DNA from: an uncultured Alphaproteobacteria bacterium
Lineage (GTDB): Bacteria > Pseudomonadota > Alphaproteobacteria > MPNO01 > UBA2964
Direction: 5' to 3'
Assembly: GCA_951812775.1 (NCBI GenBank)
Contig: OX638326.1
Span: 320,335-384,334 of the forward strand
Length of the DNA stretch: 64,000 nt
A program made the position numbers and the translations under genes. Shown in pieces: positions 1,638 through 18,869 of the stretch (its first letter is position 1; each line of letters starts with the position of its first letter). Below the pieces are notes generated by a model, which did not search any database, was not told the DNA's origin, and saw only the letters and a list, made by a program, of their open reading frames with translations.

Positions 1638-1757
1638 TCAAAGCTATTTCCTGTTCTTACATGCCGGATTTGACAACGATATAGGCCTATCGTCGTCGCT
1701 GGACCAGCTACATTTTGAGTAGTTGTCGCCATTGCCCTGGATGCTTATGAATTAGTT

Positions 1758-2569
1758 ATGTTCATTCTTTCCAAAATATTTTTAACGCTCACCGACCCCG
1801 GCTTTCTTGTCTTGTTGCTGTTGTTGGTTTCAACGGGTCTTATTTTGCTTCGTCGCGCGGCAGGAAAGTGGCGCCTGACAGCCACTGTATTATTTTGCGC
1901 AGCTATTTCGATACTTCCCGTAGGATCACTAATGGTCGCCGCTCTAGAGGACAGATTCCCGGTCGTTACGTCCGTTAAGGGCCCTGTTGATGGCGTTATC
2001 GTGCTTGGTGGCAGTGTTGATCAATATCTAAGCCAGTATCGCAAACAAGTCGTCTTAAATAACGGTGGCGAACGCATGACCGGTTTCGTTGCCTTGGCGC
2101 GTCAATACCCCAACGCCAAACTCATCTTCACCGGAGGCTCGGGCCGTTTGGAACAGAAATACAAAGAAGCCGATACGGCCCGAGCGTTTTTTTACGTCAT
2201 TAGGACTTCAAGCATCACGTATTTTTTTCGAAGACCAATCGAGAAATACATTCGAAAATGGCGTTTTTTCTCATCGTCTCGTTAAACCACAACCATCAGA
2301 ACGGTGGATATTAATCACCTCCGCGCGCCATATGCCGCGTTCCATTGGCGTATTCAGCTGGCGTATTCAGCAAACTCGGTTGGAAGGTCATACCTTACCC
2401 GGTCGACTACTTTACCTATGGGGTGGGGGACGATGGATTACAGTTCAACCTCGCGAACAGCCTCAAGTCGTTTCATTCAGGCCTGAGAGAATGGATGGGG
2501 CTGGCAGTATACAGAATTCTTGGCAGAACTGATGAATTCTTCCCTGGACCGGAGCAAAAACAAGGGTAG
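1758..2569 (+). pseudogene. DUF218 (YdcF/ElyC-like) family gene disrupted by two frame lesions
   Basis: Three consecutive frames carry the family sequence: 1758-2285, 2089-2532 (EDQSRNTFENG motif) and 2345-2569. Removing one T from the T7 run at 2187-2193 and one copy of the 13-bp tandem duplication tggcgtattcagc (2346-2358 / 2359-2371) restores a single ORF. Confidence 0.7.
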
Positions 2570-2684
2570 CCTCACGACATGTTTGCTCGATTCGTATGGC
2601 TATGGCACAAGGCTAGGCTTTGATTGTTGAAAGGTACGCGTGATGTCCGTCGCATGCGGGTTGCAATTCCCGGCTGGAATCTCG

Positions 2685-3686
2685 ATGCGTTTACTTGTCC
2701 TTGTATTTGCGTCATGCCTTTTCGCGCAAACCTCCTATTCACAAGCCAAACCCGACTTTTCAGCCTGGCTGGAAAATGTTCGCGTCGAAGCAGCTAAGCG
2801 TGGCATCAAGCAATCAATAATCGATAGTGCCCTCAAAAACGTAAAACCCATTAAGCGCGTCCTAAAACGTGACCGCAATCAGTCTGAGTTCAAGCTCACC
2901 CTAAAGCGCTATCTCAACCGCGTCGTTACAAAGACAAACATTAAACGCGGACGGATAATGGCGGATCGTCATAAGGCGACCCTCAAAGCTGTTTCGAAAA
3001 AGTATGGCGTTCCCCCTAGAGTCATTTTAGCAATTTGGGGAATCGAAACGCGGTTTGGCCTTGTAAAGGCCAATGTCCCACTCATCCCTTCAGTTGCCAC
3101 ATTGGCTTATGATCGAAGGCGTTCTAAATATTTTCGCGGACAGCTATTTGCCGTTCTGCAAATGTTAGACCGCGGGTATATCGATCAAAAGAGTCTCTTT
3201 GGTTCATGGGCCGGGGCGATGGGACAGCCGCAATTTATGCCGTCGAGTTACCTTGCCTATGCCCAGGACTTCGATGGCGATGGCAGACGAGACATTTGGA
3301 AGAGCGTCCCGGACGTTCTAGCCTCGATTGCAAACTATCTGGCAAAGCATGGTTGGCGCTCTGATCTGAACTGGGGCAGGGAGGTAGCACTTCCTATTTC
3401 ATTTGCCGAAAGCCTGAAACCATTCAAAAGACGTGCTGCGCGTGGCTGCCGTGCCAGAACCTCCGAACCCAGATCACTTCCGGCATGGCAATCTGCAGGC
3501 ATTCGACATGTCAGTGGACAAGATCTGCCAACACGAAACATTTCCGCCGTACTTGTCCTTCCTGACGGTAAGGAAGGACGTACCTTCCTTACTTACAAAA
3601 ACTACGCCTCAATCATGGCATATAACTGTGCACATCTTTACGCTGTAACCGTTGGCGTTCTGTCAGATCGTATAGGAGGAAAATAG
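2685..3686 (+). CDS. mltB: lytic murein transglycosylase (MltB family), periplasmic
   Basis: Signal peptide MRLLVLVFASCLFAQ. The MltB-type motif PSSYLAYAQDFDGDGRRDIW is present. The ORF track starts it at 2640; the later ATG at 2685 is more likely the start. Confidence 0.7.
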   Translation: MRLLVLVFASCLFAQTSYSQAKPDFSAWLENVRVEAAKRGIKQSIIDSALKNVKPIKRVLKRDRNQSEFKLTLKRYLNRVVTKTNIKRGRIMADRHKATLKAVSKKYGVPPRVILAIWGIETRFGLVKANVPLIPSVATLAYDRRRSKYFRGQLFAVLQMLDRGYIDQKSLFGSWAGAMGQPQFMPSSYLAYAQDFDGDGRRDIWKSVPDVLASIANYLAKHGWRSDLNWGREVALPISFAESLKPFKRRAARGCRARTSEPRSLPAWQSAGIRHVSGQDLPTRNISAVLVLPDGKEGRTFLTYKNYASIMAYNCAHLYAVTVGVLSDRIGGK

Positions 3687-3690
3687 GATC

Positions 3691-4614
3691 GTGCTCATCC
3701 GAAATCTTACGGTCGCTGCAAGCTCGGTACTCCTTCTATTAACAGGGTGCGCCGAAACCCAATTGGCATTACATACTGCAAAGAAATTGACCACGGGTAC
3801 TCCAGCTCAAAGCAAGGGTGCCTACAAAGTCGGGAACCCCTATAAAATCAAAGGTACTTGGTACTACCCGGCCGTGAATTACGGTTATGTCGAACAGGGT
3901 ATCGCTTCCTGGTATGGGCCACAGTTTCACGGGCGAAAGACGGCTAATGGCGAGATATTCGACATGAATGTGGTGTCAGCGGCACACCGAACCCTTCCAA
4001 TGCCAAGTGTCGTCCGCGTGACCAACCTTAAAAACAGTCGATCCCTTAAAATACGCGTAAATGATCGTGGACCTTTCGCGAAAAGTCGGATCATTGATTT
4101 GTCCCGTCGAGCGGCACAATTGCTTGGTTTTGAACGACGCGGCACGGCATTGGTTCGAGTAGAAATTATCGCTGACGAAAGCCGAAGAATGGCGGCTTTG
4201 GCGCAGGGAAAAGCTAAAAGCCTCCCAACACAAAAATCAGCAAATGTAAAAATTGCAAGCTTACCCGGCAGCATCGGAGAAAACCCGGCTGTTACAAATA
4301 CCAAAAGAGCACTGTCATCGCCCACACCGAAACCCGTACAAACCAAACCAGTAGATGTTGTAAAAATCGCGCCGGTTGGTGGAAGCAAAAAGATTTACGT
4401 ACAGGCAGGGGCCTTCGTTTACCGGGATTTAGCGGCGAAAATGCAAAAGCTGCTCAATCCGCTGGGTCCGAGCAGAATTGTTGAAAAGGTAATTGGCAAA
4501 CGGCGGTATTTTCGAGTGCAGGTCGGCCCGGCATCAAGCGTTAGCCAGGGAGATAAACTTCTTAACCTCGTCATCGCCAGCGGATATCCAAAAGCTCGCC
4601 TTGTCGTCGACTAA
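3691..4614 (+). CDS. rlpA: septal ring lytic transglycosylase RlpA family lipoprotein (DPBB domain plus C-terminal SPOR domain)
   Basis: Lipobox LLLTGC. RlpA DPBB motif GIASWYGPQFHGRKTANGEIFDM. SPOR-like C-terminus. RBS ggagga upstream of a GTG start. Confidence 0.8.
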   Translation: MLIRNLTVAASSVLLLLTGCAETQLALHTAKKLTTGTPAQSKGAYKVGNPYKIKGTWYYPAVNYGYVEQGIASWYGPQFHGRKTANGEIFDMNVVSAAHRTLPMPSVVRVTNLKNSRSLKIRVNDRGPFAKSRIIDLSRRAAQLLGFERRGTALVRVEIIADESRRMAALAQGKAKSLPTQKSANVKIASLPGSIGENPAVTNTKRALSSPTPKPVQTKPVDVVKIAPVGGSKKIYVQAGAFVYRDLAAKMQKLLNPLGPSRIVEKVIGKRRYFRVQVGPASSVSQGDKLLNLVIASGYPKARLVVD

Positions 4615-4667
4615 GATAGAAGTCATCCTTTGGTCTTATTTTTGATGTTAAATAGGTTGGAATTAAC

Positions 4668-5831
4668 ATGCTTGATCTGAAAGGTCTTTCCGTGTTTCAA
4701 CCCATAAAACGCTCCACCCTGATTGGCGTTTGTGTTTGTTTAATCTCAAATTCTTTGGCCGCGCAAACGATAGAGACGGCCGCCCGTCACGCAGTTCTCT
4801 ATGACCTGACCACGGACGCTATATTGTTGGATAAGGCGTCTGACGTGCCAATGCCCCCGGCATCCATGAGTAAACTGATGACCGTCTATATGGTCTTCGA
4901 ACGTCTCAAGGCCGAACGGTTAAGTCTGGATGACAAGTTTGTTGTCAGTCGCAAAGCCTGGCGCAAGGGCGGATCAAAGATGTTTGTCATGGTCAACACC
5001 CGTGTCGCCGTCAAAGACCTGCTACGCGGCATTATCATTCAGTCGGGCAATGACGCCTGTATTGTCATCGCCGAAGGAATTTCAGGTTCCGAAGCAGCCT
5101 TTGCAGCTGAAATGACCCGAAAAGCCAAAGAAATCGGGCTCACGAATAGTGCATTTAAAAACGCTACCGGATGGCCAGCGGAAGGCCATCACATGTCGGC
5201 CCGCGATATCGCAACACTATCCAAGAAACTCATTGTTGATTTTCCGGAATATTACAAACTCTTCAGTGAAGTCGATTTCACCTATGGTGGTATCAAACAG
5301 GGAAACCGGAATCCTTTGCTCTATAGAGGGTTTAATGCCGATGGTCTGAAGACTGGTCACACAGAGGCTTCCGGATACGGACTCGCTGCATCAGTGATCC
5401 GGAAAGGACGCAGACTGCTTCTGGTTATCAATGGATTAAACAGTAAAAGGGCGAGAGCATCAGAGTCGGCGCGACTCCTTGACTGGGCATTTCGAGAAAC
5501 TGCCTCCTACGCTCTTTTCAAAAAGGATGAAGTAATTGAACAAGCCGATGTCTGGTTGGGAAACGCTTCGAGTCTTCCACTGGTTGTCGGTAAAAAAATT
5601 ACGCTAACAATGTCCCGCAAAGCCCGGCATGGAATGAAGGTAAAAGTCAGCTATACCAACCCCGTACCGGCGCCAATAAAAAAGGGAACCTCGGTTGGCA
5701 TGGTAACCGTCACGGCGCCGGGAATAGAGCCAATTCAGGTCCCCTTAATCGCGAACGCGGATATCGAACAACTTGGTGCGATGGGGCGGCTAAACGCTGC
5801 CGTAAAATATCTGCTTTTCGGCGGCTCTTGA
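4668..5831 (+). CDS. D-alanyl-D-alanine carboxypeptidase (PBP5/6 family)
   Basis: Signal peptide. SMSK (SxxK) active-site motif, SGN motif and KTG motif. Confidence 0.8.
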   Translation: MLDLKGLSVFQPIKRSTLIGVCVCLISNSLAAQTIETAARHAVLYDLTTDAILLDKASDVPMPPASMSKLMTVYMVFERLKAERLSLDDKFVVSRKAWRKGGSKMFVMVNTRVAVKDLLRGIIIQSGNDACIVIAEGISGSEAAFAAEMTRKAKEIGLTNSAFKNATGWPAEGHHMSARDIATLSKKLIVDFPEYYKLFSEVDFTYGGIKQGNRNPLLYRGFNADGLKTGHTEASGYGLAASVIRKGRRLLLVINGLNSKRARASESARLLDWAFRETASYALFKKDEVIEQADVWLGNASSLPLVVGKKITLTMSRKARHGMKVKVSYTNPVPAPIKKGTSVGMVTVTAPGIEPIQVPLIANADIEQLGAMGRLNAAVKYLLFGGS

Positions 5832-5864
5832 AATGAGCGCAAAATCTCCTGCGATTATTGCCGC

Positions 5865-6524
5865 ATGACCACTGGATTTTTCATTACACTGGAAGGCGGT
5901 GAAGGCGCTGGCAAATCAACACAGATCAAGTTGCTCGAAGAACGCTTATCCGCGCACAATATTGAGGTTGTTCGAACTCGAGAACCCGGTGGCGTCCCTT
6001 CGGCAGAGGACATACGGAACTTATTGGTCAATGGTGAAACCGATAAATGGCTTCCTCTGACAGAGACACTGCTCCATTTCGCTGCCAGGCATGAACACAT
6101 AGCTAGGCTTGTCGAACCTGCTCTTATTGAGGGGAAATGGGTTTTGTGTGACCGGTTTGCTGATTCTACTACTGCCTACCAAGGATATGCGCAGAGTATG
6201 GATATGAAGACCATATCAACTCTATATGAATTGGCCGTTGGAAATCTGAAACCAGACCTGACAATAATTCTTGATCTACCTGTAGAAGTTGGTTTGGAAC
6301 GAGCTGAGGAACGGGATGTCGGTGGTACGCGCTACGAACGCATGGGTATAGAATTTCATCAAACTCTTCGCGATGGTTTTTTGCAGATCGCTGAGGATAA
6401 TCCAGGAAGATGCTCCGTGATTGATGCTACACAATCAATTGATGCGATATCCGTCCAAATTTTTGCTCTCGTTGAGGAACGCTTTTTATCATCAGTAACG
6501 CCATCTAAGGGTCAAACCGTTTGA
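5865..6524 (+). CDS. tmk: thymidylate kinase
   Basis: P-loop FITLEGGEGAGKSTQ. Conserved tmk-holB-metG-tatD neighbourhood. Confidence 0.9.
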   Translation: MTTGFFITLEGGEGAGKSTQIKLLEERLSAHNIEVVRTREPGGVPSAEDIRNLLVNGETDKWLPLTETLLHFAARHEHIARLVEPALIEGKWVLCDRFADSTTAYQGYAQSMDMKTISTLYELAVGNLKPDLTIILDLPVEVGLERAEERDVGGTRYERMGIEFHQTLRDGFLQIAEDNPGRCSVIDATQSIDAISVQIFALVEERFLSSVTPSKGQTV

Positions 6525-7618
6525 CTGATACTGACGACACCAGGCATCCACGACACAATCCCCAACTGATCGGGCATAGCGCTGCAGAACAGAAGTTTCT
6601 TTCGATCTGGAAATCCGAACGAATTCCCCATGGGTGGCTTCTGACCGGTCCCCGGGGCATCGGCAAAGCAACATTGGCCTTTCGCATTGCCCGATTTGTT
6701 TTATCCAATGGGGGCGATCAAGCATCTTCACCAGGATTGTTTGGCGAGCCCGCCGTCCCAAACCTTGAACTTGACGAGGAGAGTCCGGTTTTTCGGCGCA
6801 TTGCATCGGGTGGCCACGCGGACCTTATGACTCTCGAACGAACGATAAATCCAGATACGAATAAAATGCGGTCGAACATCGCCGTTGAAAATGTCCGTTC
6901 TGCAGGCGATTTCCTACGTTTAACAGCATCCGAAGGCGGTTGGCGTGTCGTCATTATCGACAGTGTCGACGAGCTTAACGTCAATGCTGCGAATGCACTG
7001 CTTAAAATTCTGGAGGAACCGCCGAATAACGCTTTATTGCTTCTTGTTTGCCATGCACCTGGCCGTCTTTTGCCAACAATCCGCTCGCGATGTTGCCAGA
7101 TGCCGCTCTTACCATTGCCAGAAACGGATGTTGCGTCGATTTTGCAAAGCGCCAGTCCGGATTTACCCGCCGGTGATCTACAGCCCCTTTGTCAGCTCTC
7201 CGATGGAAGTCCGGGCAGGGCAGTCGCCCTCGCGGAAGAAGGCGGGCTCGAGCTGTACCGCGAGTTGGTTTCGTTACTGGTCAGTCTTCCCAATACCGAA
7301 ACCTCCGCCATCCATAGTTTTGGCGATCGCCTTGCCAGACGGGGTGCCGAAGACAGTTTTCGCCTCGTTACCGAACTCCTCTCCTGGTGGATAAGCCGCC
7401 TTACACGCATGGGCGCCCGGGGATTGGAAATACCCAATATTGTACCAGAAGAGGAGGGGTGCGCAGCCCGTTTGCTAGCTGCAACAGGGGTTGATCACTG
7501 GCTGGAGGTATGGGAGAAGGTCAACACGTTGGCTCGTCAAACGGATGGGTTAAACCTCGATAAAAAACAAGCCCTACTAAACATGTTTCATGCGCTTAAG
7601 GGTGCTGCAACAGGTTGA
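6521..7618 (+). CDS. holB: DNA polymerase III subunit delta-prime
   Basis: AAA+ motif HGWLLTGPRGIGKATLA. Start overlaps the tmk stop. Confidence 0.85.
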   Translation: MTDTDDTRHPRHNPQLIGHSAAEQKFLSIWKSERIPHGWLLTGPRGIGKATLAFRIARFVLSNGGDQASSPGLFGEPAVPNLELDEESPVFRRIASGGHADLMTLERTINPDTNKMRSNIAVENVRSAGDFLRLTASEGGWRVVIIDSVDELNVNAANALLKILEEPPNNALLLLVCHAPGRLLPTIRSRCCQMPLLPLPETDVASILQSASPDLPAGDLQPLCQLSDGSPGRAVALAEEGGLELYRELVSLLVSLPNTETSAIHSFGDRLARRGAEDSFRLVTELLSWWISRLTRMGARGLEIPNIVPEEEGCAARLLAATGVDHWLEVWEKVNTLARQTDGLNLDKKQALLNMFHALKGAATG

Positions 7619-9359: not shown

Positions 9360-10397
9360 ATGCGTGCCAGACCAAAAAGTTTGTTGGCGATTTCGTTGGC
9401 GGTGGGTCTAATCTCAGCACCAACATTCGCTCAAAGCGTTGAAAAACTTTACAAAAACAGAACGATCACGATAGCGATCCCATATGGCCCCGGCGGAACA
9501 TATGATAAGTACGGATCTACATTTGCAAATCACCTCGGCAAACATATTCCGGGAAAACCGAATGTCATTGTCCAACATCGCCCCGGCGCAGGTGGCGCGA
9601 AAGCGATGAATTACACCTATAATGTCGCCGCCAAGGACGGTACTTTTGGAATTGTTCCACTCGACGCAGCAGTCGTTAACCAACTGATCCGTCCTGATAA
9701 GATGAAATATCAAGCCAATAAGTTTCAATGGCTTGGCTCATCCAATCAAACGAATTCAGTGCTTGTCGTCCGCACGGATACTGGAATTAAATCAATCAAC
9801 GATATGAAGCGCATCGAAGCTATCGGTGCCAATAGCGGTAAATTTAATTCGGGCTATATGAATCCGAAACTGGCGATGGGTCTCTTGGGTCTGAAAGGTC
9901 GATTTGTCACCGGCTACAAAGGCTCTTCTCGTTCGATCCTCGCTATTGAACAAGGCGAAGCTCAAATGTCGAGTTTCAATTGGTTAACCTGGGATTCCAA
10001 AGTCCCGCATTGGTTTACCGGGAAGAAACCGTTTGCTCGTGCCATACTGCAAAATGGTACTGAGAAAGACCCGGCTTTACCGAACGTCCCGATGTTAGCC
10101 GATCTTGTAAAAGAACAAGACAAACCGCTTGTTGCTTTTATCGCCTCTATGGGCCCAATCGGTCGAGGAATCACAATGCCACCAGGCGTTCCCAAACACG
10201 TCATCAAAGCATTGCGCAAAGCGTATGATTCCATGAATGCGGATCCCGTTTTTAAAGCCGAACTTAAAAAACGTCGGTTGCGGCTGATTGCAAGTTCAGG
10301 AGAAAAAATTCAGTCGATTGTCAATAATGCCCTCAAGGCCTCATCTCCAGAGGTAATCAAGCGCGTTCGTGAGGTTATATTTGGTAGCGCCAGTTGA
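9360..10397 (+). CDS. tripartite tricarboxylate transporter substrate-binding protein (TctC/Bug family), orphan
   Basis: Signal peptide. Family N-terminal pattern IPYGPGGTYD...HRPGAGG...AAKDGT. RBS caggagg. Confidence 0.65.
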   Translation: MRARPKSLLAISLAVGLISAPTFAQSVEKLYKNRTITIAIPYGPGGTYDKYGSTFANHLGKHIPGKPNVIVQHRPGAGGAKAMNYTYNVAAKDGTFGIVPLDAAVVNQLIRPDKMKYQANKFQWLGSSNQTNSVLVVRTDTGIKSINDMKRIEAIGANSGKFNSGYMNPKLAMGLLGLKGRFVTGYKGSSRSILAIEQGEAQMSSFNWLTWDSKVPHWFTGKKPFARAILQNGTEKDPALPNVPMLADLVKEQDKPLVAFIASMGPIGRGITMPPGVPKHVIKALRKAYDSMNADPVFKAELKKRRLRLIASSGEKIQSIVNNALKASSPEVIKRVREVIFGSAS

Positions 10398-10420
10398 ACA
10401 TTCAACAGACTAAGAAAAAA

Positions 10421-10452
10421 GGGTCGCAATAGTTTTGCGGCCCTTTTTTAAT
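10421..10452 (+). terminator. rho-independent terminator after the tctC-like gene
   Basis: Stem GGGTCGCAA / TTGCGGCCC with one G-U pair, followed by a T6 run. Confidence 0.6.
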
Positions 10453-10476
10453 TATATAACAGTTCAATGCGCACCA

Positions 10477-10496
10477 CCTCAGCCCAACTCGACCCC
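10477..10496 (-). repeat. partial Tn3-family terminal inverted repeat (outer 20 bp, GGGGTCGAGTTGGGCTGAGG on the minus strand)
   Basis: Identical to the outer 20 bp of the IR at 18033-18071. The match continues imperfectly through 5 flanking bp (tgcat vs ttcat). Confidence 0.6.
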
Positions 10497-10504
10497 TGCA
10501 TCGG

Positions 10505-10975
10505 GCGCTCGATGTTACCTTCCGGCAGGACGATTGCCGCATCAGAACCGGAAATGCCACAATCAATCATGCAGCAATGAACCTGCTACGCCGCGCGCCG
10601 GACAAACTCAGCCTGCCGCAAAAACGCCGATCAGCGGCATGGGACGACACCTACATGGAAGCCGTAATCCGACAATAGCCGTTCGGTCGATTCCCCTGGG
10701 GGGAAGGTCCAGGAACAAACCTTCATCGACAACTGGCCCGACGTTTTGGGATGCACGGCCACGATGCTTTCTGGCAAGGTGCCGCCAAGCCAACTGCTCA
10801 GGCAATTGTCGGCCCGTCCGCGCAAGCACGATCCGGCCATCGCGATGCGGGTATTTCATCAGCTTGAGGTCGGTTGCATTGACCTGCGTATGGCCGTTGA
10901 AGCGCCGGAAATGCTCATCTACTACGGTCGTGTTCAGGAACACGGCCAATCCACGGGCAAGCGCTTCGGGTAAGC
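10505..10975 (+). pseudogene. tnpA: decayed Tn3-family transposase (TnpA) C-terminal fragment with multiple frameshifts and stops
   Basis: Plus-strand frames give QEQTFIDNWPDVLGCTATMLSGKVPPSQLLRQLSARPRKHDPAIAMRVFHQLEV. This aligns to the NWPDVLRCIATMLSGHLLRKLAARPRQHDLALALREIGRVE segment of the tnpA at 16913-18028. Confidence 0.6.
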
Positions 10976-11049
10976 CGTGTTTGTTCTCATGAAATAGGTT
11001 CATGTGGTTCTCGAAGCCCAGCCCCGAATGATCGCCAAAAGCGGCAGGA

Positions 11050-11286
11050 TCAACAACGCTCGCTACCACGCGGCGCTTTTCCTCTTTCGACGAGAAGCGG
11101 CGTACCACGCAATAAAAGCCACTTTTCCGTCTCGTCATTACGCATGATCGCGTTGGGCTTCTTCAGGCCAGGCACGGGCCAGACGGTGCCGCTGTCATCT
11201 TGAACACCTGAAACCTTTCCGCTTTTCAATGCTTTTGTAAAAGTTGGCCGGGATACTTGGTAAATCTTTACCGCTTCTTTCATGGA
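11050..11286 (-). CDS. small helix-turn-helix DNA-binding protein (excisionase/AlpA-like HTH), about 78 aa from MKEAVK
   Basis: HTH-like motif KEAVKIYQVSRPTFTKALKSGKVSGVQDDSGTVWPV. The longer ORF to 11409 has no better start support. Confidence 0.4.
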   Translation of the reverse strand, partial: SMKEAVKIYQVSRPTFTKALKSGKVSGVQDDSGTVWPVPGLKKPNAIMRNDETEKWLLLRGTPLLVERGKAPRGSERC

Positions 11287-11469
11287 AACATTAGCCACGT
11301 TGAACACTCTATTCGCTGTCTTCTGGAGGGTTGCCAAATTCGGGCAAATCTGGCTCAAGGCCGGGGAAAGATGGCTGCTCAAAATTCGATCAGACCTACC
11401 TCCCCCCAATAACTTGTTGATTTCATTGGTTCGAAAATTTGCCCTTTCTTATGATCTACAGAAAGGAAG

Positions 11470-11528
11470 AAAAATCCACCCACGTTCGATCGGGGGTGCA
11501 CCCCCGATCGAACGTGGGTGGATTTTTT
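11470..11528. terminator. 58-bp perfect palindrome (24-bp arms, TGCA centre) flanked by A5/T6; probable bidirectional rho-independent terminator
   Basis: AAAAATCCACCCACGTTCGATCGGGGG TGCA CCCCCGATCGAACGTGGGTGGATTTTTT read directly from the sequence. Confidence 0.6.
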
Positions 11529-11581
11529 GACTGACAAACGTGACCAAGGAGCCTGTTCCACTACTTACAGCTAAACTTACC

Positions 11582-11617
11582 GTTGCGGCTTGACCGCGAA
11601 TTTTGAACAGCTACAAT
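11582..11617 (+). CRISPR. single 36-nt type II-C CRISPR repeat (GTTGCGGCTTGACCGCGAATTTTGAACAGCTACAAT) with no spacers
   Basis: Length and 3' end (GCTACAAT, -10-like) match the Neisseria-type II-C repeat architecture. It lies 73 bp downstream of cas2 on the opposite strand, and residues 12-28 are perfectly complementary to the candidate tracrRNA anti-repeat at 16398-16414. No further copy occurs within 70 bp on either side. Confidence 0.75.
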
Positions 11618-11690
11618 AGATGTCCGGATAGAACTTTGTAATCACAAGGTTTTATCCGGGGTCTGTTGACTATTTTCTGTCCGAATCGTA

Positions 11691-12035
11691 TCAGAACATC
11701 ACCAGTTGCTCCGGATTCTCACGAGCTTTGCGGCGGCCCTGATCCGATAAATGTATGATATCACGATATTGCCGGTCCGTGAAATTCAGGATTTGCACAT
11801 CGCCGGCATCGGGCAAGTTGCGTTCAATCCGGAGGACCCGGGCCGAAAACGCCTCTTTCCCGTTCACGAACCGCGCATAGACCGAAAATTGGCTGCGCTC
11901 GAACCCTTCGTCCAGCAGGAAATTGCGAAAGCTGCCCGCGTCCTTTTGCTGTTTCTTCGTGTCCGTGGGCAGGTCGAACATCACGAGAATCCACATGAGA
12001 CGATACCTCGACAACCGGGTGATGGTTGTCGTCAT
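11691..12035 (-). CDS. cas2: CRISPR-associated endoribonuclease Cas2 (type II)
   Basis: LSRYRLMWILVMFDLPTDTKKQQKDAGSFRNFLLDEGFERSQFSVYARF closely parallels Streptococcus type II Cas2. Overlaps the cas1 stop by 4 bp. Confidence 0.9.
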   Translation of the reverse strand: MTTTITRLSRYRLMWILVMFDLPTDTKKQQKDAGSFRNFLLDEGFERSQFSVYARFVNGKEAFSARVLRIERNLPDAGDVQILNFTDRQYRDIIHLSDQGRRKARENPEQLVMF

Positions 12036-12967
12036 TTTCCCAGTCCAGCCAGTGCAAGAGGATCGGGAGGGTCGGGCAAGGCGAGAGTCAATTTGGCCGC
12101 TTCAAAACTCTGCCCCAAGGATGTCGCCAGCTTTATCAGAGCGACCGAGACCGGTGTGACACCATCGCCCAAAGGCAGGTCTGTGGCTATCAGGCGGGCG
12201 AGTTGCTGCTTGGCCTCTGTGTCGACCTCTGGTCCACATTTTGCCGCGATGGCCCGAACCGTACAGTCGACCAGTGGGCGAAAGGGCTCCATCAGGTCAT
12301 CGGCCAAAGCAAAGGCGTTGCCGCGGTTTGCGTGAAATAGGCCTATGGTCGGATGCAGACCCGCGGCAACGACGGCGCGGGCGGTGGCGGCACGCAAGAC
12401 CGTGTAGCCATAATTCAGCAGCGCGTTTTCCCGATCTGCCGACGTGTTGCGGCGAAAATCCGAACCCATCATACGTGGCCAGTAGTAGCGGGCCGCCTGT
12501 GCCTCGATGTTGGTTCTGTCACCCGAAGATATCTTGCGGATCATCATTTCCAGTGGCGCGGACGGCTCGCCAATTGCCGAAAGGGCAGCTGCCTGCATTC
12601 TAACCTTGGAAGTTACGATCTGTTTCCAGGCCTGTTTGGTAAACGATGCCTTGGCGTTCCATTGTGCTCGCATTCGCGCTCCCTGTATGTGATGGCCTTC
12701 CAGCGGCATGAGAACGGATTTAGGGGCATGATTGGCGGCACAAAGGACCACCGGCGCACCGCGCTCGGCAAGCTCGACCAAAAGAGAGGAAGACCATGTT
12801 GTGCCATGGGCATGCACGATGACGCCTGCGATCTGGTCGAGCGGGGTGCGGCCGATTTCGGTCCCGTGTTCCGTGACCTTAAGAAAACCCCGGTCGCGCG
12901 ACAAATGGCGCCCGTCGGTTGCAATATCAATGATCTGATCCAATACAACACCCCGTGCAAAAGACAT
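12032..12967 (-). CDS. cas1: CRISPR-associated endonuclease Cas1 (type II)
   Basis: Cas1 signature ALLNYGYTVLRA. About 311 aa. Immediately downstream of cas9. Confidence 0.9.
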   Translation of the reverse strand: MSFARGVVLDQIIDIATDGRHLSRDRGFLKVTEHGTEIGRTPLDQIAGVIVHAHGTTWSSSLLVELAERGAPVVLCAANHAPKSVLMPLEGHHIQGARMRAQWNAKASFTKQAWKQIVTSKVRMQAAALSAIGEPSAPLEMMIRKISSGDRTNIEAQAARYYWPRMMGSDFRRNTSADRENALLNYGYTVLRAATARAVVAAGLHPTIGLFHANRGNAFALADDLMEPFRPLVDCTVRAIAAKCGPEVDTEAKQQLARLIATDLPLGDGVTPVSVALIKLATSLGQSFEAAKLTLALPDPPDPLALAGLGK

Positions 12968-13021
12968 GAATCGTCAACCTATTGAGTGTATTACACCGTC
13001 AGGAATCTACCAAATCCCAGG

Positions 13022-16000
13022 TTACCTTTGCCGTAAGGGATTCCGCAGGCGACCCATTTCATCCACATGGACCCTTCGGACATTAGCTTTTACAAGGGGC
13101 CTTGCTCTCATACATCTGAAACGAAACGTATCGGTCCTGTCGCGGTTGCGAGCATCGGCATTGGCCTCGTTATGGGGGGCAATACAGAGCCCGTTGGCAC
13201 CCAGGCTTTGCACATAGCCAATGATTATTTTGCGATCTCGTTCTTCAATCGCAACCATGTCCCGTTTGAAGACCCGCAGCAACCGTTTCGCAGCGGGGTG
13301 GGGCCGTTTCACGGCGCCTGACTGATGCGCCTCGAAAGTCGTGATCACCTGGGGTTCGATCTTGCCGTCGGGCATGCGCCAGATCTCGTAGCAGTGATTA
13401 CTGTCGCCTTTGTAGGCCTTGAACTCCTTGCCATCACGGTCGGTAACCGGCACCCGGGCGCTTTTCTGCAAGGTCTCCACCATTCGCACACGGCGCAATC
13501 CGAAATACGGGTTGTCCGATTGATCCGGCCAGATCTTGGATTATACGGGCCAGGTGACGTTGCAGGTCCGCGTCGCGGATGTTGGTGCCTTTTGTGGTGA
13601 TCTTGATGTCATTTGCGCTAAGCGACCTCAGCGGCTTACGGCTGACCACCTTGCCGTCACGGGCCAATCCGTAGGCGGTATCATTGTGCAATTGCCCAGT
13701 CGTGCTGTCCTTGCCCGATGCGCGGGCGGCGGGGTCGATACGGCCATGATCGGCCCGGTGACTGACGATGATGCGATCGAGCTGCGCGGCGATGTCGGCC
13801 CGGAATTCTTCCCACGGTGGCGCGACGGAGCGGGCCACTTCTTCAGCGCCATCGCGTTTATCTCGGGAGGCCGTATCGCTGATGCGCTTGATCAAAGAAC
13901 GATCCGTTGCCGCGACCACGGCCGCGTCGATTGCGTGGTGGCGGTGATCCGTGCGGTTCTTGGCCTTCACCGCCCCATCCTTGTCGGGCAAAAGACTGTT
14001 CAGCCCCCAGTGCCGACGCAGCATTTCGGTCAGCCTTCCGGGCACGACCCAAACATGGGATTTGCTGTCGGTGCCATCGTAAAGAGCACCTAGATAGGCG
14101 CGGGCGATGCGCGACAGGTACTGCGTGTCCTTCAAGGCGCGGGTGGAAAAGTCATTTTCGCCCTCGAACCGCTCCATCGCGTCAGGCGCGAAACGCCAGG
14201 CTTTGTTTTTGGGCAGGTTCTTAAGGTTTGCGGCAATCACCTCCCACTGATCGGTCTCACCCCAAGCCTCCCATGGGGTCCTATTCGTCTTTTGCCGGTT
14301 GAATTCCTTCAGACAGAGGGTGCGGTTGGCGAAGCGGTCATCCAATGTGCGCGAATAGGGTAGGATGTGATCTACATCGCAGGAGCCATCGAAAAGCATG
14401 GCCGCACTGATCCGTTTCCCGGAATATGGACAGTTGCGGGTCATGACGTCTTCGCCAAGGTCTTCCCACAGCCGCAGCCGCATGCGGTTGGCCCCGGTAT
14501 CGGGCACGCCCAGTTCTTCCAGCTTTTTGCGGCGCCGGTCCGCTGCCTCGGTGTTTTTCTTGATGTCGCTCTCGACGGCGCGTTTTTGGTCTTTGGACAA
14601 TTTCAAATCGCGGGCCAGTTCTACCACGATCTCGTCAGGTTTGCCGTAGACAGTGATGATCCGGTTCACCAATCGGCGAAGCTGGTTCAGCCCGATATGC
14701 ACCGTGGGGTTGGTAATGCGACCGAAACGGGCGATGTCATCGTCGTTCTCGTCGTAGGTGCCCGGAATGACGTGACGGCCGAGCACCTCGCCATAATAGG
14801 GAAGTTCGTCCAATATCTCGCCGGTGCGCTCATCCGAGTGATGCCAGCCACAGCGGGCCACGGCCTCGCTATACGGGATCACCTCGGCCTCCAGCGCGGC
14901 AAGGATGCGAGAAGTGGCCGACAGTCCCAGCCGTCCGTAACCTTCGGGCAGGGGGGCATGGGCGACCTCTTTGGCATGGTTGCAATGAAGACTATGGGTG
15001 GAGGTCAGCCATGCGACCAGCCTGTCATGTTCCGCCTCGCTTTGCACGGCGCGGATGCGCTCGATGACCTGCCATTGTGCCTCGACAGCCAGCGTCGACC
15101 AGCGTGGCCCGAACCGTCGGGGGTCGGACAAGCTGGCACGGACCGGATCGCAGGAGATGGCATCCCGATTGGCGGTTTGAAGCGTGAAATTCTGATTGGA
15201 GCGCAAGCCGATCAGCGTGCCAAGCGCCTTGAGCTTCATTGACATGTTCGACGGCGATTCCGTGTGCTTTTTGTTGTCCAGCGCGTGGAGGATTTGGTCA
15301 CGTTCTTCCAGGGTCAGGCTACGTGCCGACTCGCCCCGTGCCGCAACGCGCAAGGCGTTGACTGTTTCAACCAGAATGCGCCGCTGGTGCAGGGGATGGG
15401 CGCTGGGGACGCGCCGTTCGTCGGTGAAGAGGCAAAGCCCCACCTCGGGCGTCTTCAAAGGGCGCTGGTGAAAAATGACCTTGCTGATCTCATCGCGCAG
15501 TTCATCAGTCAAAACATCAGGTTGAAACCGGGCTTGCGACGCCCACAGCTTGTCGAACTCCTCCCGCAGATGGCGGCGGTCGGGGTAGAAATCATAGCCC
15601 GGTTCCTCTTTCTCGGAATTGTTGCGTCGGGCGACGGACAAGTGGGTACGCACCGAAGGCACATGTTTCGGATCGTCCGCCGAAATGCGACGCATATGTA
15701 AAAACTCGCCATAGGTTCGGGCGCCCTTGACCATCATCGCTTTCTCCAGCCGCGCGGTGGCGTCCTTGATCTTGCCGCTATCATTGTCTCTGCGGTCGAT
15801 CTTGCGGTTGGATTTGAACCCACGACGTTGATTCAAATGAAACAGCGCCCGTCCGAGGTGCGAAAGCGGCAGTTCCCGATCCAATCCCTCGGCGCGAAGC
15901 GCATATGGATCGAGTTGCACCAGTTCCTTCGCCTTGTCAGGGTCCGATGGCATCAGCCCCGCCGAGGCCATGCGTTTCATCAGCGCGGCTTTACGGCGCA

Positions 16001-16193
16001 TAAACCTGTCGCGACGCCGACGCTGGGCACGGGCGGCACGGCGATCTACAGCTAATGAAGCTTTGGTTTTGGGATTGCGGCCGTCCGAGAATATGCGAAC
16101 GCCCCTGTCGACAACCTTTGTGACTTCACCGTTTTCGGTGGCATAAAGCCACCAGCCTATAGAATTTGTACCAACATCCAGGCCAAGACGCAT
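13022..16193 (-). CDS. cas9: Cas9 (type II-C, about 1070 aa) interrupted by a frameshift: main ORF 13434-16193 plus C-terminal PAM-interacting segment 13022-13498 in the +1 frame
   Basis: RuvC-I MRLGLDVGTNSIGWW, HNH DVDHILPYSRTLDDRFANRTLCLKEFNRQKTNR and RuvC-III HHAIDAAVVAATD are present. The C-terminal fragment VRMVETLQKSARVPVTDRDGKEFKAYKGDSNHCYEIW resembles II-C PI domains. The frames cross near 13505-13540. Confidence 0.9.
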
Positions 16194-16354
16194 TCGATCA
16201 CCATTTCACTATTACGCAGTCTGTTGAGTTTTACTATGCCTGAGGAACCAGCCATGGTCAAGACATGGCTGGTTGGTGTTTGCAAGATTGCTGCCTGGGT
16301 CCACACCAAGATAATGCAACTGCCTCCTGCTATCGCTCGATAACGGGAAGTCTG

Positions 16355-16391
16355 TTGGTTGCGCCTTGACACGCAAATTTTGAACAGCTAT
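16355..16391 (+). repeat. degenerate CRISPR repeat copy (about 85% identical, 37 nt) immediately upstream of the tracrRNA; likely supplies its -10 box (TATACT)
   Basis: GTTGCGCCTTGACACGCAAATTTTGAACAGCTATACT compared with the repeat at 11582-11617. Confidence 0.65.
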
Positions 16392-16397
16392 ACTGAC

Positions 16398-16484
16398 GTC
16401 GTTCAAAATTCGCGGTCGGGCCGTTAACAAGCATTCGATTGCACCACATTGAGACGCAGGCTACGGCCTGCGTTTTCTTGTTTT
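16398..16484 (+). ncRNA. tracrRNA: candidate tracrRNA: anti-repeat, linker, GC hairpin terminator
   Basis: GTTCAAAATTCGCGGTC (16398-16414) is the exact reverse complement of repeat positions 11-27, and the following GGGCCGTTAAC extends the pairing. Hairpin ACGCAGGC-TACG-GCCTGCGT with a TTTCTTGTTTT tail at 16451-16481. Transcribed divergently from cas9. Confidence 0.7.
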
Positions 16485-16912
16485 CGGCTTGGCTCTTCTC
16501 AACGGTGTGCTTCCCGGATTTCCGCTGGAGTAATTCTACGAACAACCCTTGCCAACCCGGAAACCCCGCCTGCTACCCGTCTGGATATCGCTGTCCATTG
16601 CCTCCACCTCCCGCCCGGTTCCTCTTGAATCCAAGATATAAAACAATGCTAAATATTATTTAGCATTATAAAACACCGCCTTCCGCAAGGCGCTTGTCCT
16701 ACCCCTTTCCGGGCCGTTTTCCCCTCCAAAACAGGCGTTTCTCCGCGCCGGAATCTTCCGGCCATGCCACGGAAGCAATCATGAATGATGTCAATGCATT
16801 GCCGATGGCATGCAGGTCACATCAAAACGAACCTCGTTTTGATGTATAATCATGTCTTTTGCTAAGATAATGATTATTTTATGTCGGATATTTCCGGCTC
16901 AAAGAAAGATAC

Positions 16913-18028
16913 ATGGACCCGAACGACAGGCACAAAAACCAGCGCAAATTCATTGCAGCCAGAAAGGCCGAAGGGCTCAATCTGGGCTTGAGCAAAATGG
17001 CCAACGCCACCAGCACCCATGACTTTATGCAGCTCTCTCGGCTGTCGCGTTGGCATGTGGAAAGCGACTGCATGGCCCGCGCATTGGCTATGGTGATCGA
17101 GGCACAGGCGCGATTGCCGATGGCGCAATTCTGGGGGGGGGGGCAAACCGCCTCCAGCGACGGGCAGTTCTTTCCCGCCACTCGCCAAGGCGAGGCGCTG
17201 AATCCCATCAATGCAAAATATGGGCGGGAGCCCGGGCTGAAAGCCTACACCCATGTGACGGATCAATACGCGCCCTTCGCCACGCAGGTCATCCCCGCCA
17301 CGGTGAACGAGGCGCTGTATATCCTGGATGGGTTGCTCATGAATGAGGCAGGGCGGAAGATCAAAGAGCAGTACGCCGATACCGGCGGGTTCACTGACAT
17401 GGTCTTCGCAACCACATCATTGCTTGGATATCTCTTCCATCCCCGCATCCGTGACCTTGCCTCCAAGAGATTGCATGTCTTTGACACGCGATCTGTCCCA
17501 AAAGAACTGAAGGGCCTGACGGGTGATCGGATCCGTGAAACCACGATCATCGCCAATTGGCCCGACGTCTTGCGCTGTATCGCAACGATGCTGTCCGGCC
17601 ATCTCCTCAGGAAATTGGCGGCACGACCGCGGCAGCATGATCTGGCGCTTGCATTGCGCGAAATCGGACGGGTCGAACGAACGCTGTTCATCATTGAATG
17701 GCTGCTCAATACCGAGATGCAACGCCGCGCGAACATCGGCCTCAACAAAGGTGGGGCGCATCACGCACTGAAGGGGGCATTGCGGATCGGACGCCAAGGT
17801 GAAATCCGCGACCGCACAACAGAAGGCCGGCACTTCCGCATCGCAGGTCTGAACTTGTTGACTGCCATCATCATCTTTTGGAATACCAAGCAGCTGGGGA
17901 TCGCCGTCGCTCAACGCCAGAAAGCAGGGCTTGATTGCTCTCCAGACCTCCTGGCGCATATCTCGCCACTCGGATGGGCCCACATCCTTCCCACGGGCGA
18001 ATATCGGTGGCGGATAAAGAGGCCATGA
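16913..18028 (+). pseudogene. tnpA: 5'-truncated Tn3-family transposase TnpA (C-terminal 371 aa including the DDE region)
   Basis: ADTGGFTDMVFATTSLLGYLFHPRIRDL, ANWPDVL and HISPLGWAHILPTGEYRW are typical Tn3-family C-terminal blocks. There is no N-terminal half upstream. The stop lies 4 bp before the IR. Confidence 0.85.
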
Positions 18029-18032
18029 ACTG

Positions 18033-18071
18033 CTTAAAGGGGTTTTCCGCCCTCAGCCCAACTCGACCCCC
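18033..18071 (-). repeat. Tn3-family 38-bp terminal inverted repeat (GGGGGTCGAGTTGGGCTGAGGGCGGAAAACCCCTTTAAG read from the outer end)
   Basis: The GGGG outer end, internal GAAAAC and inner TAAG match Tn3/Tn1000/Tn21-type IR architecture. The outer end is 3 bp upstream of the tatD ATG. Confidence 0.8.
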
Positions 18072-18074
18072 TTC

Positions 18075-18869
18075 ATGCTGGTAGACAGCCACTGCCACCT
18101 GGATTTCGACAGCTTCGACGAAGATCGTGCTGAAACGATACAGCGGGCATTTGATGCCGGGGTTGGTATGCTCGTTACCATCTGTACACATTTCAGTAAA
18201 TTTGAAGAAATACTCGAGGTCGCAAAACTAGATACGAGAATTTATTGCTCTGTGGGTATTCATCCGCATCAGGTTGAGGAAGAACCAACTATCGCGCTCG
18301 AGAACCTGTTGGAAAGCGCAAAGCATCCCAAAGTAATCGGGATAGGGGAGACCGGACTGGACTATTATTACGATAAAAGTCCACGCGAAGACCAGAAATC
18401 CAGCTTTCGAACACACATCACTGCAGCCCGCGAAACGCAGCTACCCTTGATCGTACATACCAGAGATGCCGACGACGATATGGCTGCCATTCTTCGAGAG
18501 GAAATGCAGATCGGGTCCTTTCCATGCGTTTTACATTGTTTTTCCAGTGGCCGTGCTCTTGCTGAAACTGCGATTGATCTCGGGTTTTATCTGTCTTTGT
18601 CCGGTATTTTGACGTTCAAGAACGCTGGAGAGCTCCGCGGGATCATCCGTGATATGCCTGTCGATCGGTTGCTTGTTGAAACAGATTCACCTTATTTAGC
18701 ACCGGTTCCAAATCGAGGAAAAAGAAATGAGCCTTCCTTCGTGGTGCACACCGCGGAAAAGGCTTCTGAAATCAAAGGGTTGGCCCCTAAAACTTTTTCC
18801 GATACCACAACAGAAAACTTTTTCCGACTGTTTACAAAAGCACAATCAGAACAAGGCGCTCCGCAATGA
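18075..18869 (+). CDS. tatD: TatD family deoxyribonuclease/hydrolase
   Basis: MLVDSHCHLDF N-terminus. Conserved position after metG. Confidence 0.85.
   Translation: MLVDSHCHLDFDSFDEDRAETIQRAFDAGVGMLVTICTHFSKFEEILEVAKLDTRIYCSVGIHPHQVEEEPTIALENLLESAKHPKVIGIGETGLDYYYDKSPREDQKSSFRTHITAARETQLPLIVHTRDADDDMAAILREEMQIGSFPCVLHCFSSGRALAETAIDLGFYLSLSGILTFKNAGELRGIIRDMPVDRLLVETDSPYLAPVPNRGKRNEPSFVVHTAEKASEIKGLAPKTFSDTTTENFFRLFTKAQSEQGAPQ

Follow-up and report, generated by a model that had tools for sequence, protein, structure and literature searches.

Tn1721, a member of the Tn21 subgroup of the Tn3 family that consists of the "minor transposon" Tn1722 and a tet region, carries three 38-bp inverted repeats (IRs), two of which (IRRI and IRRII) stand in direct orientation around the cargo, together with a truncated transposase gene, and is thought to derive from two copies of Tn1722, one of them partly deleted (PMC5736529, PMC6205034). 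Tn6122 and Tn3434a are small cryptic tnpR-tnpA transposons of the same family, with Tn6122-like elements found in Sulfitobacter, Ruegeria, and Roseovarius, and two copies of Tn3434 bracket TnPpa1 of Paracoccus pantotrophus (PMC3281130). Cointegrates similarly have two direct copies of an element at their replicon junctions and have been observed to persist, though the case documented there concerns IS1248 and not a Tn3-family element (PMC3281130). Tn3-family elements show target immunity, which works against a second copy nearby (PMC10250215, PMC3281130), and TnpA protects the inner ca. 30 bp of the 38-bp IR (PMC10250215). One-ended transposition of Tn3-family elements with variable second endpoints is documented in a passage of PMC4133298 that cites Avila et al. 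1988.

The locus described here lies in a 64-kb window (the whole stretch of DNA that was analyzed) and comprises an island of 7,594 bp (10477-18070) between tctC and tatD, with a GC content of 56.6% compared to 48-49% in the flanks and a right boundary that falls exactly at an IR tip. Two right-hand IRs (IRRs) in the same orientation surround its cargo, and the outer one follows a truncated tnpA (16967-18070), which is the Tn1721 type of arrangement. Like Tn1721, which we know from its description in the cited papers, the window thus shows an IRR stub, cargo, truncated tnpA, and IRR. Unlike Tn1721, the window has neither a complete minor transposon nor an IRL and retains just 20 bp of the inner IRR, which leaves the structure dead; plasmid debris and a decayed type II-C CRISPR-Cas locus make up the cargo in place of tetA/tetR, and the transposase comes from a different, alphaproteobacterial lineage. 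The original prediction for this locus had missed that Tn1721 is a classical precedent for two IRs in one orientation, the outer of which adjoins a truncated tnpA.

A Tn3-family end beside tatD

The right edge of the island is a genuine Tn3-family terminal inverted repeat, i.e., the complete 38-bp IRR of a small cryptic transposon of the tnpR-tnpA type that occurs on plasmids of Roseobacteraceae. It occupies 18033-18070 on the minus strand with its tip at 18070, where it reads GGGGTCGAGTTGGGCTGAGGGCGGAAAACCCCTTTAAG; its plus-strand sequence CTTAAAGGGGTTTTCCGCCCTCAGCCCAACTCGACCCC is the reverse complement of the IR form GGGGTCGAG...CCCCTTTAAG. The 38-bp IRs of tnpR-tnpA elements from Roseobacteraceae and Paracoccus share this form, and 35 of 38 bases are identical between the window and the complete elements L001 and L002, two 3.7-kb tnpR-tnpA transposons on Sulfitobacter plasmids; a 3,684-bp element on plasmids of Sulfitobacter sp. 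OXR-159 is an example of the same group. The link to Tn6122 and Tn3434 is one by description.

An intact Tn3-type IR at the tatD start had been predicted from the outset, and its family assignment holds, but its proposed extent (18033-18071) was one base too long. Because the IRs of the complete relatives are 38 bp long, start with GGGG, and are flanked by exact 5-bp target duplications (CATTG for L001 and AGCAT for L002, found where the original prediction had proposed to look), the fifth C at 18071 is target DNA and an IR of 39 bp is ruled out. The pentanucleotide CTTCA that adjoins the IR tip (18071-18075, plus strand), with the A of the tatD ATG as its last base, would be one copy of such a duplication.

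Inward of the IR lies a 3' remnant of tnpA on the plus strand (16967-18028, about codons 604-966), recognized by tblastn, Pfam, NCBIfam, and nucleotide alignment. What had been taken as tnpA is therefore a fragment: the mechanically called open reading frame (16913-18028, 371 aa) begins with a fortuitous ATG, and homology to intact tnpA sets in near 16962-16967 in the nucleotide alignment. In tblastn the remnant matches aa 606-959 of the 966-aa TnpA of L001 with 86% protein identity, it covers positions 27-389 of 389 of the Pfam model DDE_Tnp_Tn3, and it matches positions 590-954 of 954 of NCBIfam transpos_Tn3 with a score of 444 (E = 8e-133), below the 500 bits that this model sets as cut-off for full-length proteins. 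Judged by these matches, its membership in the Tn3 family is unambiguous. Together, tnpA and IR share 76.8% nucleotide identity with the plasmid-borne Sulfitobacter elements and are collinear with complete family members, in which tnpA stops a few bp inside the IR; here, the TGA stop at 18026-18028 lies 4 bp inside the inner IR end, as had been noted before. By these alignments, the segment descends from a Tn3-family transposon, of which it is a remnant.

Only the last 1.1 kb of that transposon, i.e., the 3' third of tnpA and the IR, survives. A full-size TnpA, a DDE transposase of about 950-1000 aa, is absent with just aa 604-966 or so left, no further copy of the element's tnpA is present in the 64 kb, and a tblastn search of the window with Sulfitobacter TnpR gave nothing better than E = 2.6. 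Neither IRL nor a res remnant nor a left copy of CTTCA was found in the window, and the flanking 5-bp duplication of the Roseobacteraceae and Paracoccus elements is missing, with CTTCA on the right compared to CACCA left of 10477. The reported absence of an inverted partner was confirmed across the 64-kb window both by a search with the outer 20-mer of the IR (up to three mismatches) and by blastn-short with a word size of 7, which gave no match longer than 11 nt. There is consequently no inverted pair of about 38-bp IRs (GGGG...TAAG), the second copy being a direct stub of 20 bp. A TIME or Tn3-derived miniature element, defined by two inverted Tn3-type IRs bounding a short non-coding core (PMC4133298), is ruled out by two IR copies that are direct and 7.6 kb apart. 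Since transposase, resolvase, and IR pair are all missing and the stub lacks the inner IR region that is bound by TnpA, we infer that the locus is now immobile and nothing here can still transpose.

A second IR copy and the cargo

At the left edge of the island, a second IRR is represented by its outer 20 bp at 10477-10496 (minus strand), in the same orientation as the right-hand IR and identical to it at 20 of 20 positions. The inner 18 bp are absent, and in direct reading a single one of the 18 bases found in their place agrees with the inner IR. In shuffled sequences, the number of 20-mer matches expected by chance was 0.00 even with three mismatches allowed; a scan of the metagenome collection gave 0 exact matches to this 20-mer. 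A direct copy of 25 bp had been described at this position, of which orientation and the 20 nt stand while the five flanking bases do not: read in register, TGCAT (10497-10501) and CTTCA (18071-18075) share none of five bases, and the likeness of "tgcat" to "ttcat" requires a slip by one nucleotide. The two flanks are unrelated DNA, the left one belonging to an ISAs1 gene fragment and the right one to the start of tatD.

This 3' fragment of an ISAs1-family transposase gene (10497-10684, plus strand), identified with NCBIfam and by protein alignment, starts exactly at the IR tip, matches positions 279-307 of 314 of NCBIfam transpos_ISAs1, and shares 47-50% protein identity with plasmid-encoded ISAs1 transposases. 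When it is aligned with an ISAs1 protein of Tistrella, the IR-encoded residues LSPTRP stand where the conserved WAIENS is expected, and this replaced motif rules out that the 20-mer is itself a piece of the ISAs1 gene. With its end at the IR tip and the ISAs1 fragment next to it, the 20-mer is the truncated right-hand IR of a second copy of the same element, still joined to its ISAs1 target gene, and TGCAT is the pentanucleotide that the transposon once targeted. The original prediction had overlooked this real junction of IR tip and target inside the ISAs1 gene. Assignment to the same transposon is suggested by 20/20 identity compared to two differences over these 20 bp in a Sulfitobacter element that is 77% identical; the call of "same element" for the left copy draws on just these 20 identical bases. 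A short fragment of an older, different Tn3-family tnpA follows at 10698-10868 (plus strand, aa about 791-847; similarity and NCBIfam) and shares 54% protein identity with the TnpA of L001 as well as 74% nucleotide identity with 17532-17599 of the window. As source of the 20-mer it is ruled out by this 54% identity and by its position on the wrong side.

The remaining cargo begins with a frameshifted C-terminal fragment of a PstI-type (Eco57I-domain) DNA methylase gene (10806-11193, minus strand; nucleotide matches and tblastn) that covers aa 338-471 of 489 in tblastn and shares 88-89% nucleotide identity with genes on gammaproteobacterial plasmids. A decayed type II-C CRISPR-Cas module (11582-16485, minus strand) comprises a single 36-nt CRISPR repeat (11582-11617), cas2 (11691-12035) and cas1 (12032-12967), a cas9 split by a frameshift near 13525 (13022-13498 and 13434-16193; all three genes on the minus strand), and a plus-strand tracrRNA-like unit with promoter (16366-16394), anti-repeat (16401-16423), and terminator (16451-16476). 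No CRISPR array was found in the window, and Rfam returned no family at gathering threshold across its whole length. In the plasmid database, the nearest matches of this locus lie on plasmids of Haematospirillum and Pseudosulfitobacter, and in a metagenome scan the best Cas9 relatives are 71-81% identical with intact arrays; no Tn3 pieces lie near those relatives, and no donor was found among them. Between the CRISPR module and the truncated tnpA, an orphan AT-rich spacer (16486-16966) gave no match in a plasmid search. Given the ISAs1 fragment, the second tnpA fragment, the 89% plasmid-like restriction-modification methylase fragment, and the type II-C CRISPR locus, the cargo looks plasmid-derived.

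The host locus and tatD expression

The loci L004, L005, and L006 show the order holB-metG-tctC-tatD with about 120-130 bp between tctC and tatD and without the island, and none of the relatives recovered by scanning a genome collection with TatD (TatD identity up to 82%) carried it either. Exact-protein look-ups for island-free strains found no identical TctC or TatD protein on record. In the window, residual host DNA of this intergenic region (10398-10476, plus strand) retains the tctC terminator hairpin (10415-10449) and 27 AT-rich bp before it stops at the junction with the partial IR. On the other side, tatD (18075-18869, plus strand, 264 aa) is intact and matches positions 1-252 of 253 of Pfam TatD_DNase, with its ATG at 18075, 4 bp past the IR tip. 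Host sequence resumes at this tip: L003 reads CCTTCC-ATGCTGGTAGAC and the window CTTC-ATGCTGGTAGAC.

All four closest relatives share a promoter-like motif upstream of tatD (GCGACA-17 nt-TAAAAT) and a GGA(G) Shine-Dalgarno sequence, whereas the window retains nothing but CTTC before the ATG. As proposed originally, tatD is cut off from its own upstream signals and, as far as this comparison goes, stripped of native promoter and Shine-Dalgarno sequence; the loss of host DNA is read from spacers that can be aligned solely at the promoter motif, among relatives with TatD identities of 72-82%. A promoter scan found no consensus sigma-70 promoter on the plus strand between 16480 and 18075. The hexamers TATAAT and GATAAT can be seen by eye in the spacer 16486-16966, which is a candidate site for a promoter now feeding the tnpA remnant and tatD. 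No terminator-like site was found in 17500-18200, and tatD probably now relies on read-through from inside the island. A mini-ORF of 19 codons (18025-18084) spans the tatD ATG, to which its translation may be coupled.

Possible histories of the island

With moderate confidence, we favor a history in which the cargo lay between two copies of one transposon pointing in the same direction and deletions followed. The ancestor would have been plasmid-derived foreign DNA between these copies, laid out as IRL-Tn-IRRI-cargo-truncated tnpA-IRRII as in Tn1721 or, equivalently, as an unresolved replicative cointegrate, which the transposase would have inserted 4 bp upstream of the tatD ATG with CTTCA as target. 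A later illegitimate deletion would then have covered part of the host intergenic DNA, extended into the left copy, and halted 20 bp before its IRR tip, removing about 30-50 bp of host DNA including the tatD promoter along with the left CTTCA, IRL, tnpR, res, and tnpA. In the right copy, tnpA may already have lacked its 5' two thirds at the time of transposition, as in Tn1721, or may have lost them later. With the left copy, a long direct repeat able to excise the island by homologous recombination would also have disappeared, so that the island would be fixed in place. The left junction appears secondary because a 5-bp duplication (CACCA compared to CTTCA) and the promoter-like motif of the relatives are both absent. 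As in TnPpa1, two copies of one Tn3-family transposon would have bracketed or mobilized a large foreign block, though the TnPpa1 copies are divergent and intact while the window keeps only vestiges of both. A complete basic transposon (IRL-tnpR-tnpA-IRRI) and a duplication flanking the whole unit are absent from the window; on the two-copy model, the former would have been removed by deletion. Three observations speak against this model: no IRL, tnpR, res, or left CTTCA is left in the window, scans of metagenomes and the genome collection found no donor or sister locus with an intact structure, and Tn3-family target immunity disfavors two copies per replicon.

That a single simple transposition does not leave same-orientation ends had been correctly pointed out, and of the three origins then offered, tandem elements and deletion of a left arm fit best. 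The third, one-ended transposition, is the main rival; it is possible but receives no positive support, and we regard it as unlikely. Like the one-ended products of Tn21, Tn1721, and Tn3 cited in that passage of PMC4133298, the island has a constant end at the IR tip, no inverted partner, and donor DNA contiguous with the IR; it differs from them by lacking a target duplication, by a left junction that looks deletion-like, and by an other end inside a second IR copy. A circular donor with truncated tnpA and one IR would have been mobilized by transposase acting in trans, starting at the IR, running once round a circle of ca. 7.57 kb, and stopping 20 bp into the IR. The expected product, partial IR - donor flank - ... 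- complete IR in direct orientation, is exactly the layout of a slightly more-than-unit-length event: the ISAs1 fragment that comes after the left 20-mer would be the donor DNA flanking the IR on its outside, the IR tip is precise at the right host junction, and a donor with truncated tnpA and a lone IR would have no other route. However, work on Tn21 and Tn1721 in the 1980s reportedly found 5-bp repeats flanking one-ended products, and none are present here (CACCA compared to CTTCA). The left junction seems to lack host promoter DNA, so that an extra deletion would be needed anyway and the 20-bp endpoint would no longer mark where transposition ended. A 7.6-kb circle without a replication gene would also be an odd donor, and a halt no more than 20 bp from a complete turn is unlikely a priori.

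A further reading is that the same transposon inserted twice, independently and in the same orientation, into an island acquired by another route, with an ISAs1 copy and the region upstream of tatD as the two targets, and that deletions followed. This would account for two normal transposase-made junctions (IR tip/ISAs1 and IR tip/tatD), and nested insertions in the left kilobase of the island suggest a region that was hit repeatedly. We nevertheless consider this quite improbable, since target immunity opposes a copy 7.5 kb from the first (PMC10250215, PMC3281130) and the second insertion would have to land exactly on the boundary of island and host unless a deletion trimmed precisely there. 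It would further require an additional, separate integration mechanism; no integrase or tRNA-type attachment site was noticed among the open reading frames and repeats listed for the island. Integration of a circle by short-homology recombination between its IR and a chromosomal IR beside tatD, with ca. 20 bp duplicated, would explain the exact 20-bp direct repeat on both sides of the insert, and the native spacer of L003 (ACACCAGCC) set against the left junction of the window (CACCTCAGCC) hints that microhomology may have contributed. Yet recombination between shared IRs would restore full IRs on both sides and not a 20-bp stub next to unrelated host DNA, a solo IR would have to be present at tatD beforehand, and 20 bp are shorter than an efficient RecA substrate, so that we give this route very little credence. 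Lastly, it is hardly credible that the repeat arose by chance or through a chimeric assembly in which a repeated 20-mer linked a plasmid contig to the chromosome. The recovered relatives are mostly metagenome-assembled genomes and the source may be one as well, and 20 nt equal k-1 at k = 21. However, 0.00 chance matches are expected from the shuffles, the repeat stops exactly at a functional boundary (the IR tip), a chimera would still need the 20-mer beside tatD in the host, and both junction sequences are internally coherent.

Overall, the locus is ordinary mobile-element wreckage with a decayed Tn3-family end marking the edge of an island, and our findings leave current understanding unchallenged. 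For annotation, this means that tnpA is a pseudogene fragment and the IR a solo relic, and that an active transposon should not be called at this locus. For a 7.6-kb foreign island in an uncultured lineage of Alphaproteobacteria, the analysis sets the boundaries precisely at 10477 and 18070 and names a likely route of delivery. The case also illustrates that a Tn3-family end can displace the promoter and ribosome-binding site of a housekeeping gene, with tatD as a testable case of dependence on read-through. Tentatively, a Tn1721-type compound transposon or a single-IR one-ended event may have carried a complete type II-C CRISPR-Cas9 passenger (tracrRNA, cas9, cas1, cas2, and array) from plasmid to chromosome, where it has since decayed. 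A plasmid-type type II-C CRISPR-Cas9 locus could then reach the chromosome within a Tn3-bounded unit and, if this is true, a Tn3-family transposase acting replicatively would have transferred Cas9 immunity, a case with no relation to the Tn7-like CRISPR-associated transposons.

The right-hand IR and its partial copy

The feature next to tatD is real but ordinary: a solo Tn3-family terminal inverted repeat (IR) with a tnpA pseudogene, and an IR stub of 20 bp, bound a decayed, plasmid-derived island (10477-18070; 7,594 bp) with 56.6% GC in flanks of 48-49%. The right-hand IR at 18033-18070 reads CTTAAAGGGGTTTTCCGCCCTCAGCCCAACTCGACCCC on the plus strand (reverse complement GGGGTCGAGTTGGGCTGAGGGCGGAAAACCCCTTTAAG), and the tatD ATG lies at 18075. 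As reference for IR length we used the closest complete elements, found on Sulfitobacter sp. OXR-159 plasmids (L001 and L002), which have 38-bp IRs starting with GGGG and the 5-bp target duplications anticipated for complete relatives, here perfect copies of CATTG and AGCAT. The IR is thus 38 bp and not 39 nt long as the coordinates of the original prediction imply, so that the fifth C at 18071 is target DNA and the target pentanucleotide at the right tip is CTTCA (18071-18075). As described before, an ORF ends (TGA, 18026-18028) 4 bp inside the inner end of this IR. However, the adjacent “tnpA” turned out to be only a fragment covering amino acids 606-959 of the 966-aa Sulfitobacter TnpA (86% identity), positions 27-389 of 389 in Pfam DDE_Tnp_Tn3 and positions 590-954 of 954 in NCBIfam transpos_Tn3. 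Nucleotide homology to intact tnpA begins near 16962-16967, and neither tnpR nor other pieces of this tnpA are present in the window.

The outer 20 nt of the IR have a perfect same-strand copy at 10477-10496. Scanning both strands for this 20-mer with up to 3 mismatches gave only these two direct sites, with 0.00 expected in shuffled sequences, and blastn-short of the whole IR (word size 7) gave no further match longer than 11 nt in 64 kb, so that the reported absence of an inverted partner stands. The five flanking bases once counted into a 25-bp repeat are TGCAT on the left and CTTCA on the right, with no base shared in register, leaving a repeat of 20 bp. Directly right of the 20-mer runs a reading frame, LHRALDVTFRQDDCRIRTGN...AAWDD... 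up to a stop, that is the C-terminus of an ISAs1-family transposase (10497-10684; positions 279-307 of 314 in NCBIfam; 47-50% identity to plasmid ISAs1 proteins). Where a full-length homologue reads HWAIENS-LHWVMD, the window has LSPTRP, encoded by the IR 20-mer, in place of WAIENS, and ISAs1 homology therefore starts at the first base past the IR tip. By this alignment the 20-mer marks a genuine junction, made by a transposase, between a right-hand IR and its target within an ISAs1 gene. Read directly, the 18 bp on its left agree with the inner IR in 1 of 18 positions, and the left IR has been cut at position 20. The outer ends of both IRs are identical (20/20), whereas the 77%-identical Sulfitobacter element differs twice in the same stretch, which argues that both derive from one same transposon.

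Host junctions and arrival of the island

The nearest genomes are alphaproteobacterial MAGs with 72-82% identical TatD and the gene order holB-metG-tctC-tatD-MBL-mazG, in which the tctC-tatD spacer is only about 120-130 bp long (L004, L005 and L006). The closest relative, L003, has no tctC between metG and tatD (9846-10001) while L004-L006 do (compare 9360-10397 in the window), so the metG-tatD spacer is itself variable within the lineage. All four closest relatives (L003-L006) carry a promoter-like motif upstream of tatD, GCGACA (AGGACA in L005)-17 nt-TAAAAT, TAGAAT or TAAAGT (e.g., L004 9940-10000), that stops 26-29 nt short of the ATG, with a GGA(G) Shine-Dalgarno sequence downstream of it; the window has neither upstream of tatD. 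Host DNA is kept on the left as the tctC terminator with 27 AT-rich bp and on the right as CTTC only before the ATG, where L003 reads CCTTCC-ATG. The right IR tip is thus a primary junction between element and host, made by the transposase, and such a junction at the island/host boundary indicates that Tn3-family transposition using the right IR brought the island. The left junction reads CACCA without a CTTCA repeat, and some 30-50 bp of host DNA seem to be missing there when the spacers of these only moderately related genomes are taken for comparison; the left side is therefore probably a secondary deletion junction.

Ends in the same orientation have a classical precedent in Tn1721, which has three 38-bp IRs, with IRRI and IRRII as direct repeats around the tet region, and a partial tnpA duplication; its believed origin is a pair of Tn1722 copies around cargo, of which one lost part of its sequence (PMC5736529, PMC6205034). 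Like the island, Tn1721 has a truncated tnpA ahead of the outer of two right-hand IRs, which point the same way and have cargo between them. In topology the proposed ancestor equals an unresolved replicative cointegrate (chromosome-Tn-donor-Tn-chromosome), and in Paracoccus the TnPpa1 composite is bracketed by two Tn3434 copies and cointegrates persist (PMC3281130).

The original prediction had offered one-ended transposition, recombination between tandem elements or loss of a left arm. We lean slightly towards two same-direction copies with a deletion on the left: an ancestor IRL-Tn-IRR(I)-[ISAs1 fragment...CRISPR-Cas...]-(truncated) tnpA-IRR(II) would have entered the target CTTCA, 4 bp in front of tatD, before a deletion took out the DNA from the host spacer up to position 20 of IRR(I). 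Its main rival is one-ended transposition that goes a little beyond one turn of a circular single-IR donor. This predicts the identical sequence order, but no target duplication speaks for it and the missing host DNA would call for an extra deletion, and we regard it as rather improbable. Less likely are two independent insertions, integration of a circle through short homology, and an artefact or chance resemblance.

Present-day mobility and expression of tatD

Lacking a transposase, a resolvase and an IR pair, the locus is immobile. In Tn4430, protection by TnpA covers the inner ~30 bp of the 38-bp IR (PMC10250215), so the 20-bp outer stub should escape TnpA binding. The tatD gene is complete (Pfam TatD positions 1-252 of 253) yet has lost its native promoter and Shine-Dalgarno sequence, in line with the proposal that it is fed from a promoter in the element or by tnpA read-through. 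Such read-through is feasible given that 17500-18200 holds no terminator-like structure, and the tracrRNA terminator at 16451-16476 confines its source to about 16,480-18,070. No consensus sigma-70 promoter was found in that interval, but visual inspection of an AT-rich stretch near 16,840-16,900 showed the hexamers TATAAT and GATAAT. In Tn5393, a Tn3-family tnpA promoter was shown to drive downstream genes (PMC3281130). A 19-codon mini-ORF (18025-18084, plus strand; MNCLKGFSALSPTRPPSCW) runs through the IR; its start codon overlaps the tnpA-remnant stop (ATGA), and its TAG falls 7 nt beyond the tatD ATG. The Sulfitobacter elements do not share this mini-ORF, which, speculatively, might serve as a translational-coupling relay to tatD.

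A CRISPR-Cas9 locus in the island

Next to the ISAs1 remnant lies an older tnpA fragment of a different Tn3-family element (10698-10868, plus strand; amino acids about 791-847, 54% protein identity to L001 TnpA), apparently broken by ISAs1 as ISAs1 was by the transposon of the IR stub, a three-level nest. The C-terminal part of a PstI-type (Eco57I-domain) methylase gene survives with a frameshift (10806-11193, minus strand) and shares 88-89% nucleotide identity with genes on Morganella, Citrobacter, Pseudomonas and Aeromonas plasmids, strikingly close for an alphaproteobacterial chromosome. A perfect 58-bp palindrome (11470-11527; 29+29, no spacer, A5/T5 on its flanks), unusual for its length plus perfection, may be a bidirectional terminator. 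AT-rich orphan DNA without a match in a plasmid search (16486-16966) precedes the tnpA remnant and IR (16967-18070).

The type II-C CRISPR-Cas module occupies about 11582-16485. Its array is down to one 36-nt repeat (11582-11617; ATTGTAGCTGTTCAAAATTCGCGGTCAAGCCGCAAC on the minus strand) that matches the repeat of the related locus L090 at 35 of 36 bases, compared with arrays of 20-40 such repeats in related loci (L083-L090). The cas2 and cas1 ORFs are of full length. A frameshift near 13525 splits cas9 (13022-16193, minus strand) into two overlapping ORFs of 919 and 158 aa in different frames, while its 71-81% identical relatives form one ORF of about 1,074 aa; either it is a pseudogene or the sequence contains an error. 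A tracrRNA-like unit (16366-16485, plus strand), whose conservation among related type II-C loci is 89-95%, combines a promoter close to consensus (TTGACA-17-TATACT) within repeat-like sequence (16372-16390), an anti-repeat (16401-16423) and the terminator already mentioned.

That this transposon lineage takes up passengers is shown by the related L001 element (826-7120, Sulfitobacter plasmid NZ_CP139708), in which an IS1247 copy plus an L,D-transpeptidase gene, both taken up between IRL and tnpR, bring the length to 6.3 kb. The sole, mildly novel angle of this feature is that the type II-C CRISPR-Cas9 locus appears to have been carried, as a whole, by a Tn3-family element.
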